Virus genome (UHGV): UHGV-0074612
Length of the DNA stretch: 17,318 bases
Reading direction: 5' to 3' (one strand)
DNA from: a virus
A model generated the notes under the pieces. The model saw nothing but the letters and a program-made list of their open reading frames with translations. It did not search any database and was not told where the DNA came from. Numbering within the stretch: the stretch's first letter is position 1; each line of letters begins with the position of its first letter. This document shows, piece after piece, positions 3,682 through 17,268 of the stretch. A program made the translations under genes and the position numbers.

Positions 3682-4352
3682 TGCTCCCCAAATACAAAAC
3701 CAATTTCAGCCAGTGCCTCGTCCATTTTTTCGATGAACTCTGGCACCATTTCGTCAAAACCAGCCATGTATTTTTCATCCCGCTCGACCACGACATAATG
3801 CAGGCCTTCACGCTTCATACGTGGGTCATAGTTGGCAAAGTACCAGGCATCTTTTCGCGTCGCCCACATGCTGAATTGCACCTGGGCCATGTAAGCTGAT
3901 TTTATTGCCTCGAAACCACCGAGCCGGAATTTCATGAAATCCCGGGAGGTAAACGGGCATTTCAGTTCAAGGCCGTTGCCGTCACTGCATAAACCATCGG
4001 GAGAGCAGGCGGTGCGCATACTTTCGTCGCGATAGATGATCGGGGATTCAATAACATTTACGCCGGAAGTGAACTCAAACAGGGTTCTGGCGTCGTTCTC
4101 GTACTGTTTTCCCCAGGCCAGCGCTTTAGCGTTAACTTCCGGAGCCACACCGGTGCAAACCTCAGCCAGCAGGGTGTGGAAGTAGGACATTTTCATGTCA
4201 GGCCACTTCTTTCCTGATCGGGGCTTTGCTATCACGTTGTGAACTTCTGAAGCGGTGATGACGCCGAGCCGTAATTTGTGCCATGCATCATCCCCCTGTT
4301 CGACAGCTCTCACGTCGATCCCGGTACGCTGCAGGATAATGTCCGGTGTCAT
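3672..4352 (-). CDS. exo: Lambda exonuclease (Red alpha)
   Basis: 226-aa [43 protein letters not shown]..., lambda Exo length and sequence as I recall; start overlaps the bet stop. Confidence 0.97.
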
Positions 4353-5134
4353 GCTGCCACCTTCTGCTCAGTGGCTTTCTGTTTCAGGAATCCGAGAGCT
4401 TTCACTGCTTCGACCTGTGTCAGTTCTGACGATGCGCGAATGTCGCGGCGAAATATCTGGGAACAGAGCGGCAATAAGTCGTCATCCCATGTTTTATCCA
4501 GGGCAATCAGCAGAGTGTTAATCTCCTGCATGGTTTCATCGTTAACCGGAGTGATGTCGCGTTCCGGCTGACGTTCTGCAGTGTATGCGGTATTTTCGAC
4601 AATGCGCTCGGCTTCATCCTTGTCATAGATACCAGCAAATCCGAAGGCCAGACGGGCACACTGAATCATGGCTTTATGACGTAACATCCGTTTGGGATGC
4701 GACTGCCACGGCCCCGTGATTTCTCTGCCTTCGCGGGTTTTGAATGGTTCGCGGCGGCATTCATCCATCCACTCGGTAACGCAGATCGGATGATTACGGT
4801 CCTTGCGGTAAATCCGGCATGTGCAGGATTCATTGTCCTGCTCAAAGTCCATGCCATCAAACTGCTGGTTTTCATTGATGATACGGGACCAGCCATCAAC
4901 GCCCACCACCGGAACGATGCCGTTCTGCTTGTCAGGGAAGGCGTAAATTTCTTTCGTCCACGGATTAAGGCCGTACTGGTTGGCGACGATCAACAATGCG
5001 ATGAACTGCGCATCGCTGGCATCGCCTTTAAATGCCGTCTGGCGAAGAGTGGTGATCAGTTCCTGTGGGTCGACAGAATCCATGCCGACACGTTCAGCCA
5101 GCTTCCCAGCCAGCGTTGCGAGTGCTGTACTCAT
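4349..5134 (-). CDS. bet: Single-strand annealing protein Bet (Red beta)
   Basis: 261-aa [53 protein letters not shown]..., lambda Bet length and sequence as I recall. Confidence 0.97.
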
Positions 5135-5228: not shown

Positions 5229-5260
5229 AGGCCTGCTGGTAATCGCAGGCCTTTTTATTT
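5229..5260 (+). terminator. Rho-independent terminator, lambda tR2-like
   Basis: 8-bp stem AGGCCTGC/GCAGGCCT (5229-5236/5245-5252), 8-nt loop, then TTTTTATTT; located just upstream of ninB as tR2 is in lambda. Confidence 0.75.
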
Positions 5261-5276
5261 GGGGGAGAGGGAAGTC

Positions 5277-5717
5277 ATGAAAAAACTAACCTTTGAAATT
5301 CGATCTCCAGCACATCAGCAAAACGCTATTCACGCAGTACAGCAAATCCTTCCAGACCCAACCAAACCAATCGTAGTAACCATTCAGGAACGCAACCGCA
5401 GCTTAGACCAAAACAGGAAGCTATGGGCCTGCTTAGGTGACGTCTCTCGTCAGGTTGAATGGCATGGTCGCTGGCTGGATGCAGAAAGCTGGAAGTGTGT
5501 GTTTACCGCAGCATTAAAGCAGCAGGATGTTGTTCCTAACCTTGCCGGGAATGGCTTTGTGGTAATAGGCCAGTCAACCAGCAGGATGCGTGTAGGCGAA
5601 TTTGCGGAGCTATTAGAGCTTATACAGGCATTCGGTACAGAGCGTGGCGTTAAGTGGTCAGACGAAGCGAGACTGGCTCTGGAGTGGAAAGCGAGATGGG
5701 GAGATCGGGCTGCATGA
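5277..5717 (+). CDS. ninB: NinB (Orf family recombination mediator)
   Basis: Track ORF 5259..5717; ATG at 5277 gives MKKLTFEIRSPAHQQNAIHAVQQILPDP..., lambda NinB-like, preceded by GGAGAGGG. Confidence 0.93.
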   Translation: MKKLTFEIRSPAHQQNAIHAVQQILPDPTKPIVVTIQERNRSLDQNRKLWACLGDVSRQVEWHGRWLDAESWKCVFTAALKQQDVVPNLAGNGFVVIGQSTSRMRVGEFAELLELIQAFGTERGVKWSDEARLALEWKARWGDRAA

Positions 5718-7549: not shown

Positions 7550-7933
7550 ATGCGTGATATTCAGATGGTTCTTGAGCGTTGGGGAGCGTGGGCGGCTAAT
7601 AATCATGAAGATGTGACCTGGTCGTCCATTGCCGCCGGTTTTAAGGGATTAATTCCTTCAAAAGTAAAATCTCGCCCGCAATGTTGTGACGATGACGCGA
7701 TGATCATTTGCGGGTGCATGGCCCGCCTGAAAAAGAACAACAGCGATTTGCACGATTTATTAGTAGATTATTATATAGTCGGTATGACATTCATGTCACT
7801 GGCAGGTAAGCATTGCTGCTCTGATGGTTATATCGGGAAAAGGTTACAAAAGGCTGAGGGCATAATTGAAGGGATGTTAATGGCATTAGATATCCGGTTA
7901 GAGATGGATATCGTTGTTAATAACTCTAATTAA
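7550..7933 (+). CDS. Late-gene antiterminator Q (QuuD-like)
   Basis: Track ORF 7535..7933; ATG at 7550 after GGAGTAAG gives [24 protein letters not shown]... with a Cys-rich zinc-binding region, resembling the DLP12 QuuD antiterminator. Confidence 0.88.
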
Positions 7934-7955
7934 TACGCCAATTATTTACTAAAAG

Positions 7956-7984
7956 TTATTAAAAATGGGGCGTTGAAACGCCCC
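7956..7984 (-). terminator. Intrinsic terminator for the porin transcript (minus strand)
   Basis: GC-rich 7-bp stem GGGGCGT/ACGCCCC (7967-7973/7978-7984) with tetraloop, followed on the minus strand by ATTTTTAATAAC. Confidence 0.6.
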
Positions 7985-8121
7985 CAAAAATAAAGGGTAA
8001 TATATAACAGAAGGTTTATATAGTTAGAAGCAAGGTTGTGCTTCTAAAGGAAGTGGCTTGAGGGAGCCACTTATATGTTGGGGAGGCAAAGCCTCCCACA
8101 ACATATCTTTTAGTAATCAAA
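7956..8121 (-). ncRNA. Highly structured porin 3' region; candidate IpeX-like small RNA
   Basis: Four consecutive stem-loops between the porin stop (8122) and the terminator: 8077-8104, 8051-8072, 8024-8047, 7967-7984. I recall that the DLP12 sRNA IpeX maps just downstream of nmpC; exact boundaries not determinable here. Confidence 0.3.
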
Positions 8122-9204
8122 TTAGAACTGGTAAACCATACCTACAGCAACGATATCATCGGTAGCAACGCCAGATGCTTTCGTGAAATCGCTCTTATCA
8201 ATCAGGTTGATTTTGTAGTCAACAAAAGTGGACATATTTTTGTTGAAGTAATAGGTTGCACCTACATCAACATATTCAACCAGGTCCTGATCACCCCAAA
8301 CACCCAAGTCTTTTCCTTTAGAATGCAGGTAAGCAACGGATGGACGCAGGCCGAAGTCGAACTGATATTGTGCAACAGCTTCGAAGTTTTGTGCTTTGTT
8401 GGCAATATGGTTATTACCAAAAACAGTCATGTTCTGGGTTTCAGAATAGGTGGTGGCCAGATAGATGTTGTTCGCATCATATTTCAGACCAGCTGCCCAT
8501 ACTTCAGCATTTTGACCAGAAGCATTCAGACCGTTGTTACCGTAGATAACCTGATTATTAGTGCGATCAGATTTAGCATAGGTTGCACCCACGCCGAATC
8601 CTTCATACTCATAAGTAGTTGAGAAACCGAAACCATCGCCATTAGCTTCAGTTACTTCATTTCGGTCATTTTTGCCCTGATACTGAGCTGCAAAGTTCAG
8701 GCCATCAACCAGACCAAAGAAGTCGTTGTTACGATAAGTTGCAACACCTGTGGTGCGACCAGTCATGAATACATCTGTTTGGGTCCAGGTATCGCCACCG
8801 AATTCTGGCAGAACGTCGGTCCATGCACCGATGTCGTATGCTACACCGTAGTTACGGCCGTAATCGATGGAGCCGTAGTCACCGAATTTCAGGCCAGCGA
8901 AGGCAAGACGGGTTTTATCTTTGGAGGAACCTTGAGATTCAGCGCGGTTGCCTTTGAATTCATATTCCCACTGACCGAAACCAGTCAGTTGATCGTTGAT
9001 TTGGGTTTCACCTTTGAAGCCAAGACGGGCATAAGTAGTATCACCATCATCTGCATCATTAGAGGAGAAGTAGTGCTTAGCATTAACTTTCCCGTACAGA
9101 TCCAGCTTGTTACTGTCTTTATTATAAATTTCAGCTGCCTGAGCAGACATCGCCATCAGTACTGATGCAGCTACAGCAGAAATTGCCACTGTTAATTTTT
9201 TCAT
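8122..9204 (-). CDS. nmpC: OmpC/OmpF-family general porin, prophage-encoded (NmpC/Lc-like)
   Basis: 360-aa ORF with signal peptide [23 protein letters not shown] then AEIYNKD..., C-terminal VGMVYQF ending in Phe; located between Q and the holin on the opposite strand, as nmpC is in DLP12. Confidence 0.93.
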
Positions 9205-9632
9205 CGTGAGCCCTTTTTTTTGAACTATTATTAAAAAATGATGTCACTGCGCGATAAATATTCATCTAATCAATGTGAATATTTCAAGATGTAAGTTTTG
9301 GTTTCTCGTTTGATTTGTGAAGTAGATCTCTATTTTTATCTGAACTTTTTTCTATCGAATCCTATTCATGGCTCTTGACTGAATAAAAATAAATCTATTA
9401 GCCAATTTATATTAATGGCTGTTATTTATAAGTGCTCTATAATTTGAAGGTTCAATTTAAATTGACTAAAAATAACGCTGGAAATTATTTGTTGGTTATT
9501 TGTTGAGATTTGCTTATGTATTTGTAGTGGTGTTTTCAATACTCGGTAGCATTCTCGCAAATATCATTTAGTGGTTTACGTACGTAAAAAATTGGTTATG
9601 CTGTTAAGAGTGGTTACTTCGTCACACAGCTT

Positions 9633-9666
9633 AAACCCGCCGTCGAGCGGGTTTTTCCATTTTTTG
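9633..9666 (+). terminator. Rho-independent terminator inside the porin-holin intergenic region (tR'-like)
   Basis: 8-bp stem AAACCCGC/GCGGGTTT (9633-9640/9647-9654), 6-nt loop, then TTCCATTTTTTG. No plus-strand gene ends upstream of it. Confidence 0.7.
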
Positions 9667-9777
9667 AGTCTCGATATTAGCTGATAACCCAATACCTGAG
9701 TTATTCACTGACTCCGAGTCTGTTACGTTTCGTAGTATTCCCTCAATTTACACCCGCTTTGTCTGCGAGGTGGGGTT

Positions 9778-14571: not shown

Positions 14572-15883
14572 GAACACGGCACTGGTCGGCGTGCAGGTGG
14601 ACTCGGAGCAGTTCGGCAGCCAGCAGGTGAGCCGTAATTATCATCTGCGCGGGCGCATTCTGCAGGTGCCGTCGAACTATAACCCGCAGACGCGGCAATA
14701 CAGCGGTATCTGGGATGGAACGTTTAAGCCAGCATACAGCAACAACATGGCCTGGTGTCTGTGGGATATGCTGACCCATCCGCGCTACGGCATGGGGAAA
14801 CGTCTTGGTGCAGCAGATGTGGATAAATGGACGCTGTATGTCATCGGCCAGTACTGCGACCAGTTGGTACCGAATGGTTTTGGCGGCACGGAGCCGCGCA
14901 TCACCTGTAATGCCTGGCTGACCACACAGCGTAAGGCGTGGGATGTGCTCAGTGATTTCTGCTCGGCGATGCGCTGTATGCCGGTATGGAACGGGCAGAC
15001 GCTGACGTTCGTGCAGGACCGACCATCAGATAAGGTGTGGACCTATAACCGCAGTAATGTGGTGATGCCGGATGATGGCGCGCCGTTCCGCTACAGCTTC
15101 AGCGCCCTGAAGGACCGCCATAATGCCGTTGAGGTGAACTGGATTGACCCGAACAACGGCTGGGAGACGGCGACAGAGCTTGTTGAAGATACGCAGGCCA
15201 TTGCCCGTTACGGTCGTAATGTCACGAAGATGGATGCCTTTGGCTGTACCAGCCGGGGGCAGGCACACCGCGCCGGGCTGTGGCTGATTAAAACGGAACT
15301 GCTGGAGACGCAGACCGTGGATTTCAGCGTGGGTGCTGAAGGGCTTCGCCATGTACCGGGCGATGTCATTGAAATCTGCGATGATGACTATGCCGGTATC
15401 AGCACCGGTGGTCGCGTGCTGGCGGTGAACAGCCAGACCCGGACGCTGACGCTCGACCGTGAAATCACGCTGCCATCTTCCGGCACCACGCTGATAAGCC
15501 TGGTTGACGGGCAGGGGAGTCCGGTCAGCGTGGAGGTTCAGTCCGTCACCGACGGACTTAAGGTGAAAGTGAACCGGGTTCCTGACGGCGTTGCAGAATA
15601 CAGTGTGTGGGGGCTGAAGTTGCCGACGTTGCGTCAGCGCCTGTTCCGCTGTGTGAGTATCCGTGAGAACGATGACGGCACGTATGCCATCACTGCCGTG
15701 CAGCATGTACCGGAAAAAGAAGCCATCGTGGATAACGGGGCGCACTTTGACGGCGACCAGAGCGGCACGGTGAATGATGTCACGCCGCCAGCGGTGCAGC
15801 ACCTGACTGCCGAAGTCACCGCAGACAGCGGGGAATATCAGGTGCTGGCGCGCTGGGACACGCCGAAGGTGGTGAAGGGGGTG
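14572..15883 (+). pseudogene. Tail tip protein J, internal fragment
   Basis: Track ORF 14591..16687 begins at a GTG inside J-like sequence ([28 protein letters not shown]...). J homology runs to ...[12 protein letters not shown]; the J N-terminal third and C-terminal receptor-binding region are absent. Confidence 0.85.
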
Positions 15884-16687
15884 AAGGCACATTACAGAAA
15901 TGGAGGTCTGTTCTACCGTTCCTCAAGAGATGGCTATGGTTTTGAGGAAGACTGGGCAGAAGTTTATACCTCGAAAAATCTTCCACCAGAAAGCTACCCA
16001 GTCGGCGCACCAATCCCGTGGCCATCAGATACCGTTCCGTCTGGTTATGCCCTGATGCAGGGGCAGACTTTTGACAAATCTGCATACCCGAAACTTGCAG
16101 CCGCTTATCCGTCAGGCGTGATCCCTGATATGCGTGGCTGGACGATTAAGGGCAAACCTGCCAGTGGTCGCGCCGTATTGTCTCAGGAACAGGACGGCAT
16201 TAAATCGCACACCCACAGCGCCAGCGCATCCAGTACGGATTTGGGGACGAAAACCACATCGTCGTTTGATTACGGAACCAAATCCACGAATAACACCGGG
16301 GCGCATACCCATAGTATTAGCGGGACCGCAAATAGTGCCGGCGCGCACCAACACAAGAGTTCCGGTGCATTTGGTGGCACGAACACGAGCATTTTCCCTA
16401 ATGGTTATACCGCGATTTCAAATCCAAGCGCGGGGATTATGAGCACAACAAGCGGTAGTGGTCAGACTCGTAATGCAGGGAAGACATCATCAGATGGTGC
16501 TCATACCCACTCGCTGTCCGGCACTGCTGCAAGCGCAGGCGCACATGCACATACTGTCGGTATTGGTGCTCATACGCACTCCGTTGCGATTGGCTCACAT
16601 GGACACACCATCACCGTTAACGCTGCGGGTAACGCGGAAAACACCGTCAAAAACATCGCATTTAACTATATTGTGAGGCTTGCATAA
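15884..16687 (+). pseudogene. Side tail fibre (Stf-like) C-terminal region, fused in frame to the J fragment
   Basis: ...[45 protein letters not shown]... with repeated Gly/His boxes ([30 protein letters not shown]) and C-terminus [11 protein letters not shown], typical of lambda Stf and T4 gp37-type fibre tips. Confidence 0.8.
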
Positions 16688-17268
16688 TGGCATTCAGAAT
16701 GAGTGAACAAGCACGGACCATAAAAATTTATAATCTGCTGGCCGGAACTAATGAATTTATTGGTGAAGGTGACGCATATATTCCGCCTCATACAGGTCTG
16801 CCAGCAAACAGTACCGATATTGCACCACCAGATATTCCGGCAGGCTTCGTGGCTGTTTTCAACAGTGATGAGGCATCGTGGCATCTCGTTGAAGACCATC
16901 GGGGGAAAACGGTTTATGACGTAGCGTCAGGGGACGAGTTATTTATTTCTGAACTCGGTCCGTTACCGGAAAATGTTACCTGGTTATCGCCGGGAGGGGA
17001 ATATCAGAAGTGGAACGGCACAGCCTGGGTGAAGGATACGGAAGCAGAAAAACTGTTCCGGATCCGGGAGGCGGAAGAAACAAAAAACAGCCTGATGCAG
17101 ATAGCCAGTGAGCATATAGCGCCGCTTCAGGATGCTGTGGATCTGGAGATCGCAACGGAGGAAGAAACCTTGTTGCTGGAAGCCTGGAAAAAGTATCGGG
17201 TGTTGCTGAACCGTGTTGATACATCAACTGCACCGGATATTGAATGGCCAGTAGCACCTATAGGGTAA
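16687..17268 (+). CDS. tfa: Tail fibre assembly protein Tfa
   Basis: 193-aa [42 protein letters not shown]...; start overlaps the stop of the upstream tail-fibre ORF; lambda Tfa-like length and sequence as I recall. Confidence 0.9.

Follow-up and report, generated by a model that had tools for sequence, protein, structure and literature searches.

A porin 3' tail in a decayed lambdoid prophage as a homologue of ipeX with predicted pairing to ompC and ompF

The dense cluster of stem-loops behind the porin gene of the window, i.e. the whole 17,318-nt stretch of viral DNA (UHGV-0074612) that was analysed, is on sequence grounds almost certainly ipeX itself and not merely an 'IpeX-like' element. 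The feature is therefore an already known one, here located in a decayed prophage whose porin gene has stayed intact. As an overall explanation, it is very probable that ipeX constitutes the structured 3' tail of a porin gene of the nmpC/lc family, an explanation into which we infer direct pairing of the RNA with host porin mRNAs.

The IpeX RNA of 167 nt is made within the porin transcript and needs processing from a larger precursor (PMC12197685). Whether on its own or at the end of the lc transcript, it lowers the synthesis of OmpC and OmpF post-transcriptionally, and the phage porin thereby replaces the host porins (PMC3617542, PMC3333887, PMC5069750). With regard to the underlying mechanism, reviews describe IpeX as devoid of complementarity to ompC or of base pairing (PMC10690425, PMC3617542), a further one being more guarded (PMC12197685), while one paper assumes that IpeX does base-pair. 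The RNA is tabulated as Hfq-independent (PMC8313858).

The element lets a prophage exchange the main porins of its host, which serve as phage receptors and as entry routes for antibiotics, for a porin of its own. Its recognition from the raw sequence amounts to a correct rediscovery of a locus that is unannotated in RefSeq and matched by no Rfam model. Beyond this, the analysis contributes, with moderate confidence, a refined anatomy in which the fourth stem-loop (H4) figures as a putative seed, together with a testable model of direct pairing by IpeX. The complementarity to the ribosome-binding sites of ompC and ompF turns a mechanism that has been called unexplained since 2006 into a simple question of compensatory mutations.

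Identity with ipeX

In K-12, ipeX has been placed at positions 574365-574531 of the MG1655 genome, on the reverse strand and with a length of 167 nt, as an entry 'manually added to GFF' (PMC8313858, supplementary file 1). This interval begins at the nmpC stop codon and finishes in the U-tract of the terminator, and the corresponding segment of the window (7959-8124, minus strand; Table 1) is 96.4% identical to it (161/167). Moreover, the entire spacer between Q and the porin gene aligns over its full length with the quuD-nmpC spacer of MG1655. The earlier note had suspected an IpeX-like small RNA at 7956-8121, pointing to the position of IpeX immediately downstream of nmpC in DLP12, and had named alignment to the K-12 locus as a way to check this; the degree of identity and the same position in K-12 bear the suspicion out, and the interval proposed at that time was at most 3 nt off the homologue.

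The six substitutions or indels that separate the two sequences are located in the 5' single strand, in the bulge and loop of H1 and in the terminator loop, whereas none falls within the predicted seed. The seed is identical in K-12 and the window, and the complementarity to ompC and ompF is thus present in both. The 3' region of lc in phage PA-2 (J02580) matches the cluster of the window at 95.7%. In DLP12 of K-12 and in PA-2, as in the window, the element reaches from the porin stop codon to an intrinsic terminator, on the same strand as the porin gene and convergent with Q. The window differs from K-12 in the length of ipeX, 166 instead of 167 nt, and in the state of the porin gene, as nmpC of K-12 is interrupted by IS5 at 58 nt upstream of the stop codon, whereas the gene of the window is intact.

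A search of positions 7700-8400 with the models of Rfam 15 returned no match at gathering score and only chance-level matches at E <= 10, the best of which was traJ_5 with 19 bits versus a gathering score of 50. An IpeX family thus seems to be missing from Rfam 15, and the RefSeq record of MG1655 lists micF and micC, with ipeX absent.

Table 1. Features of the porin-ipeX-Q locus and their coordinates in the window.
Feature	Position	Strand	Remarks
Q antiterminator gene, QuuD homologue, convergent	7550..7933	+	Pfam Phage_antitermQ, 1.1e-53
ipeX homologue = porin 3' UTR, stop codon to terminator U-tract, 166 nt	7959..8124	-	161/167 identical to K-12 ipeX
Intrinsic terminator, H5 hairpin 7967-7984 and AUUUUUAA at 7959-7966	7959..7984	-	H5 -12.5 kcal/mol
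Predicted antisense seed, RNA nt 109-133, AACCUUCUGUUAUAUAUUACCCUUU	7992..8016	-	complementary to ompC and ompF ribosome-binding sites
H4, marginal all-A/U hairpin, loop ACCUUCUG	8001..8022	-	-1.3 kcal/mol
H3, 7-9-bp hairpin, loop variable	8024..8047	-	-9.6 kcal/mol
H2, 8-bp hairpin, loop CCCUCA	8051..8072	-	-10.4 kcal/mol
H1, 15-bp hairpin, one-base bulge, begins 18 nt past the stop codon	8073..8106	-	-22.2 kcal/mol, z = -7.5
Porin gene, NmpC/Lc family, lambdoid prophage, 360 aa, intact	8122..9204	-	Pfam Porin_1, 3.6e-152

Organization of the locus

A spacer of 188 nt separates the two convergent genes, between the stop of the Q antiterminator gene at 7933 on the plus strand and the porin stop codon at 8122-8124 on the minus strand. 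The porin transcript bears ipeX as its 3' end, while the Q gene is a neighbour only and lies outside the RNA. This porin-ipeX-Q layout is common to MG1655, APEC O78, PA-2 and Lambda_4C10; the identical porin gene in APEC O78 is named 'porin OmpC' by PGAP. On the minus strand between the porin 3' end and the hairpin cluster, no sigma-70-like promoter was found. Lacking such a site of its own, the ipeX RNA must derive from the porin promoter, as the end of the porin transcript. Three small ORFs of 26-35 aa within the cluster were considered as well; they run through the hairpins, and support was found for none of them.

Hairpins that lack a promoter of their own and close a gene presumed to be highly expressed would also befit a purely cis-acting 3' UTR, in which they keep 3' exonucleases off the porin mRNA and end its transcription, with the effect in trans as a multicopy artefact. 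REP-like palindromes point in the same direction, ipeX being listed by RepRanger among the small RNAs that contain them. This explanation is nevertheless improbable, as it leaves an invariant unstructured run of 17 nt (see below) unexplained and conflicts with the work of Castillo-Keller et al. of 2006, in which PA-2 lysogeny and synthesis of the lc transcript at natural copy number reportedly inhibit OmpC.

Fold and terminator

Folded as minus-strand RNA, the spacer reaches a minimum free energy of -70.5 kcal/mol, compared with -31.2 +/- 3.7 kcal/mol in 200 dinucleotide shuffles, none of which folds as well (z = -10.8). The dense structure that the earlier note had claimed is hence confirmed. 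Its description of four hairpins followed by a strong minus-strand terminator holds for three solid hairpins (H1-H3) and for the terminator with H5, but not for the fourth hairpin, as H4 is marginal and 7 of 200 shuffles fold equally well.

From 7984 to 7959 the terminator reads GGGGCGUUUCAACGCCCC and then AUUUUUAA, and it constitutes the sole terminator-like site on the minus strand between 7400 and 9900. As to the features of an Hfq module, UUUAUUUUU stands directly 5' of the terminator, and the tail comprises just five U, interrupted by A. In the computed fold the whole cluster is closed by an outer 9-bp inverted repeat (7947-7955 / 8107-8115; TACTAAAAG / CTTTTAGTA), the 3' half of which is situated past the terminator and has no counterpart in E. 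albertii or in the L296 clade. This outer repeat is probably outside the RNA and might be the mark of an old recombination joint.

The plus strand of the spacer attains z = -8.6, a similar fold that is expected because the elements are palindromes. A plus strand that folds equally well could also be taken for an insulator or bidirectional terminator between Q and the porin gene, which would stop early rightward transcription antisense to the porin. On that strand H1 is followed by CUUUU (CUUUUU in K-12), and, with a likely late promoter and its terminator (9633-9654) beyond the porin gene, Q-modified transcription need not cross the cluster. A terminator scan, however, called no plus-strand terminator inside the cluster. 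In addition, E. albertii and the L296 clade keep the unit together with the porin while the sequence past the terminator differs, which assigns the unit to the porin instead of Q. An insulator as the explanation of the cluster is accordingly highly improbable, although such a role could coexist with that of a small RNA.

The cluster was further considered as the leader and terminator of a late promoter on the plus strand, which is ruled out: the only good plus-strand terminator is that at 9633-9654, just before the holin gene.

Distribution and boundaries of the inherited unit

Among 5426 complete E. coli genomes, 2502 (~46%) carry the ipeX region at 90-100% identity, with a median of one copy and a maximum of three places per genome, always behind a phage porin, and it was also found in 36 deposited phage genomes. 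Every phage-porin locus with enough flank, 287 of 287 from IMG/VR and other sources, carries the ipeX tail. On the other hand, none of 79 other enterobacterial loci with chromosomal porins of the OmpC, OmpD or OmpF type, from Citrobacter, Salmonella, Enterobacter, Klebsiella, Serratia and other genera, has an ipeX-like 3' region; among the enterobacterial porin loci examined, such a tail occurs only in E. coli and E. albertii. A viral scan with a Klebsiella porin as query returned the same family of E. coli phage porins.

These copy numbers exclude that a dispersed palindromic repeat, of either the REP/BIME or the MITE type, came to lie behind the porin by chance. The tandem imperfect palindromes and the REP label given by RepRanger would fit such an element, but a repeat confined to a median of one and a maximum of three places per genome, always in this context, with no REP consensus and no terminal repeats conserved between clades, leaves it a negligible probability.

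In the divergent sequences, namely that of E. albertii (89% identical) and those of the L290-L297 clade (81-82%), homology ends exactly past the U-tract of the terminator. Consequently, the inherited unit consists of the porin and its tail up to the terminator, to which the outer inverted repeat does not belong. The L290-L297 clade, retrieved from IMG/VR, adjoins the 3' end of a 367-aa porin, and its ipeX shows a rebuilt H1 stem and a longer H3 loop; a C-to-U change in its seed still pairs with ompC as G-U. This clade is the best material for an IpeX covariance model.

Covariation and conservation

Compensatory changes in the hairpins across related prophages, a check that the earlier note had put forward, were found in part of the structure: H1 (four pairs) and H3 (one pair) display them, whereas H2, H4 and H5 show no covariation among 49 variants. 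An initial analysis of variants at least 89% identical was uninformative, with a single double-sided pair, and the alignment became informative once the 81-82% clade was included. Altogether five pairs are changed on both sides, comprising four of the 15 in H1 and the one in H3. Column shuffles average 1.7 such pairs, only 1 of 500 reaching five, and slid controls give at most two. Since the signal derives from three related sequences and E. albertii, it reflects few independent events; the maintenance of H1 and H3 by compensatory substitutions is real but thin.

The hairpins differ in the way they vary. The compensatory double changes of H1 occur in the L296 clade or in E. albertii, while in H3 a U-A pair is replaced by A-U and the stem is kept despite variation in the sequence and length of the loop. 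Free variation is seen in the loops of H1, H3 and H5. H2 hardly varies, but its loop-closing pairs are broken in about 10 variants. In H4, a pair is broken in 18 of 49 variants, each time through the 5' arm and in no case compensated, whereas the loop and the 3' arm remain constant. H4 is therefore conserved in sequence and not in structure, as befits a seed and not a hairpin. No invariant run in the family is longer than that at nt 112-129 in 47 variants, or nt 113-129 in all 49, which lies inside the predicted seed, and a 25-nt window over the seed contains 3 variable positions compared with a mean of 7.8.

Predicted pairing with ompC and ompF

The predicted seed is composed of the H4 loop, the H4 3' arm and the linker that follows. 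It emerged from a scan of IpeX against translation initiation regions (-80 to +40), in which windowed duplex energies were combined with the opening energies of both partners. Windowed duplexes replaced an unrestricted whole-molecule duplex prediction, which gave meaningless full-length duplexes, and opening energies were added because hybrid energy without accessibility was non-discriminating, GC-rich stems matching random GC-rich sequence.

Among the 32 leaders tested, ompC and ompF, the published targets of IpeX, rank first and second. For ompC, RNA nt 109-123 (AACCUUCUGUUAUAU) and positions -21 to -7 of the leader (AUAUAACAGAGGGUU) form 15 contiguous predicted pairs, one of them G-U; the duplex spans the Shine-Dalgarno sequence GAGGG, with a hybrid energy of -20.0 and a total of -9.4 kcal/mol. 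For ompF, nt 117-132 (GUUAUAUAUUACCCUU) are predicted to pair with positions -14 to +2 over 16 nt with one mismatch, from GAGGG to the AU of the start codon, at a total of -8.4 kcal/mol, or -10.5 kcal/mol with a 24-nt window. A 6-bp match between the H2 loop CCCUCA and UGAGGG of ompF, seen by eye, is too short to count.

With the same method, the positive controls MicC-ompC and MicF-ompF yielded -15.2 and -10.3 to -11.3 kcal/mol, respectively, and the negative controls IpeX-ompA, IpeX-phage porin leader and MicF-ompC yielded -5.0, -5.1 and -2 kcal/mol. The leader of the phage porin itself is devoid of the pairing site. In a set of 269 non-porin enterobacterial leaders (mean -2.0, sd 2.05), none reaches the value of ompC and one reaches that of ompF. 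The plus-strand RNA scores about -2 against the targets, and a cofold calculation gave the same order of partners. Shuffled targets reach the real value in 2 of 150 cases each for ompC and ompF, statistics that are moderate (about 1-2% per target) and, owing to the relatedness of the two leaders, do not represent two independent matches.

Of 5371 E. coli genomes, 5351 have an ompC site conserved to at least 99%. Among the porin leaders of other Enterobacteriaceae, 18 of 69 attain the value of ompF, and in 14 of these the site is identical, which indicates that the target sequence is conserved well beyond the range in which ipeX was found. These 14 leaders are of the OmpC type, match the IpeX seed at -22 to -6 and stem, for example, from Dryocola, Scandinavium, Enterobacter and Lelliottia (among L087-L165). 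Furthermore, the predicted seed overlaps nt 128-142 of K-12 IpeX, which in vivo accessibility mapping has singled out as the likely functional region (PMC8313858).

Resemblance to known small RNAs

The predicted seed resembles those of both host-encoded regulators of the porins. With the 5' seed of MicC (GUUAUAU-G-CCUUUAUU), nt 117-137 of IpeX (GUUAUAU-AUUAC-CCUUUAUU) have two blocks of 7 and 8 nt in common, and the MicC site on ompC (-31 to -14) is overlapped by the predicted IpeX site at -21 to -7, plus -29 to -24. Unlike in MicC, the IpeX seed is internal rather than 5'-terminal and its duplex would reach over the Shine-Dalgarno sequence; there is no homology between the two RNAs outside the seed, and the predicted ompC energy of IpeX is the weaker one. 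Their genes also differ in setting, that of IpeX residing in the 3' UTR of a phage mRNA and that of MicC adjoining ompN. In the case of MicF, nt 17-28 (UUAUUUAUUACC) equal nt 118-129 of IpeX (UUAUAUAUUACC) at 11 of 12 positions, and both RNAs pair, at similar predicted energies, with GGGUAAUAAAUAA in the ompF ribosome-binding site. IpeX lacks the extra 5' pairing of MicF to the start codon region of ompF, and the genomic origins of the two are unrelated.

In its biogenesis IpeX is akin to small RNAs that are released from 3' UTRs by processing, such as CpxQ and SroC. Like these, it has no promoter of its own, shares the terminator of the upstream coding gene and features an AU-rich single strand at its presumed 5' end; unlike these, it is encoded by a phage, is far more heavily structured owing to its three stable 5' hairpins and reportedly acts at least in part without Hfq. 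With DicF of prophage Qin it shares the property of a prophage-encoded RNA that regulates core host genes post-transcriptionally. The two are unrelated in sequence and structure, DicF being cut from an immunity-region transcript and IpeX from the 3' UTR of a moron.

Proposed mechanism

As a working mechanism, direct antisense repression of ompC and ompF through the predicted pairing is somewhat favoured and is put forward with moderate confidence. The weakly structured A/U-rich stretch between H3 and the terminator (nt 109-133) would pair with the ribosome-binding sites and thereby block ribosome entry, in the manner of MicC and MicF. As a guess, H1-H3 may provide the RNA with a stable 5' body, and the AU-rich single strand between stop codon and H1 may, by a similar guess, be the likely processing site. 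In the study of Castillo-Keller et al. of 2006, the effect of IpeX was reportedly Hfq-independent on ompC but not on ompF; a perfect 15-bp duplex with ompC as opposed to an imperfect one with ompF would fit these reported Hfq data. More tentatively, nt 109-133 of IpeX may imitate both seeds, those of MicC and MicF, in one composite segment whose pairing is the mechanism and which has not been reported previously, a proposition that is somewhat doubtful as a whole. If it were true, a phage would have equipped the 3' UTR of its replacement porin with antisense regulators directed at the two host porins.

Several points speak against direct pairing. The model assigns no role to H1-H3, though H1 and H3 are kept by compensatory changes, and the tail of five U is short and thus poor for Hfq. 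Moreover, complementarity to ompC is denied in reviews, and the original authors may have tested and excluded this segment; Castillo-Keller et al. reportedly found in 2006 no complementarity within that ompC untranslated region which the effect requires.

Alternatively, IpeX might act indirectly and without mRNA pairing, its hairpins titrating an RNA-binding protein or nuclease on which translation or stability of the porin mRNAs depends, or triggering an envelope response. The complementarity to ompC and ompF would then be incidental or a relic. In favour of such indirect action, the review statements (PMC12197685, PMC10690425, PMC3617542) and the entry as Hfq-independent (PMC8313858) can be adduced, and a role would be given to H1-H3, of which H1 and H3 are maintained by compensation and H2 is nearly invariant. 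Indirect action is nonetheless unlikely: both known targets form the two best predicted duplexes, each of them on a Shine-Dalgarno sequence, no other part of the RNA is as well conserved as the complementary stretch, whereas the arm by which it would be hidden decays, and neither a protein-binding motif nor an Rfam family was recognised.

Prophage context

The window represents a degraded lambdoid prophage, in which int, xis, exo and bet are followed directly by ninB, dam, ninX, rusA and Q. Past Q, the gene order continues with the ipeX-porin module, an S21-type holin, lysozyme, Rz, a KilA-N protein, ybcV and a J/tail-fibre fusion. The immunity and replication region from gam to P is wholly missing, which renders the prophage defective, while the porin/ipeX module is intact. 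At the corresponding junction, bet (4349-5134, minus strand) directly precedes ninB (ATG at 5278, plus strand), and a terminator-like hairpin is located around 5231-5262.

In the interval from the porin start to the S21-type holin, the plus-strand intrinsic terminator at 9633-9654 is preceded by TATAAT (9436-9441) about 190 nt upstream, and these elements (9436-9654) look like a late promoter with its terminator. If a late promoter is located there, the porin/ipeX module stands between Q and the target promoter of Q. For the region homologous to 9205-9777, two CRP sites are given in the record of PA-2.

In none of the 5426 complete E. coli genomes does a single place cover more than 78% of the window, although each of its parts is common; the particular mosaic of the window is thus unrepresented among them. 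Head and tail genes are absent between the packaging region and an ORF of 698 aa (14591-16687, plus strand), which combines domains of the tail-tip protein J (Phage-tail_3, Ig_J) with a tail-fibre collar and fibre repeats and looks like a deletion fusion. Further downstream, the Rfam family RF02111 ('IS009') matches at full length at 17030-17228 on the plus strand (221 bits, E = 1e-54). This match lies inside the ORF 16687-17268, which is located at the tail-fibre end of the prophage, such that an 'RNA gene' family overlaps coding sequence.
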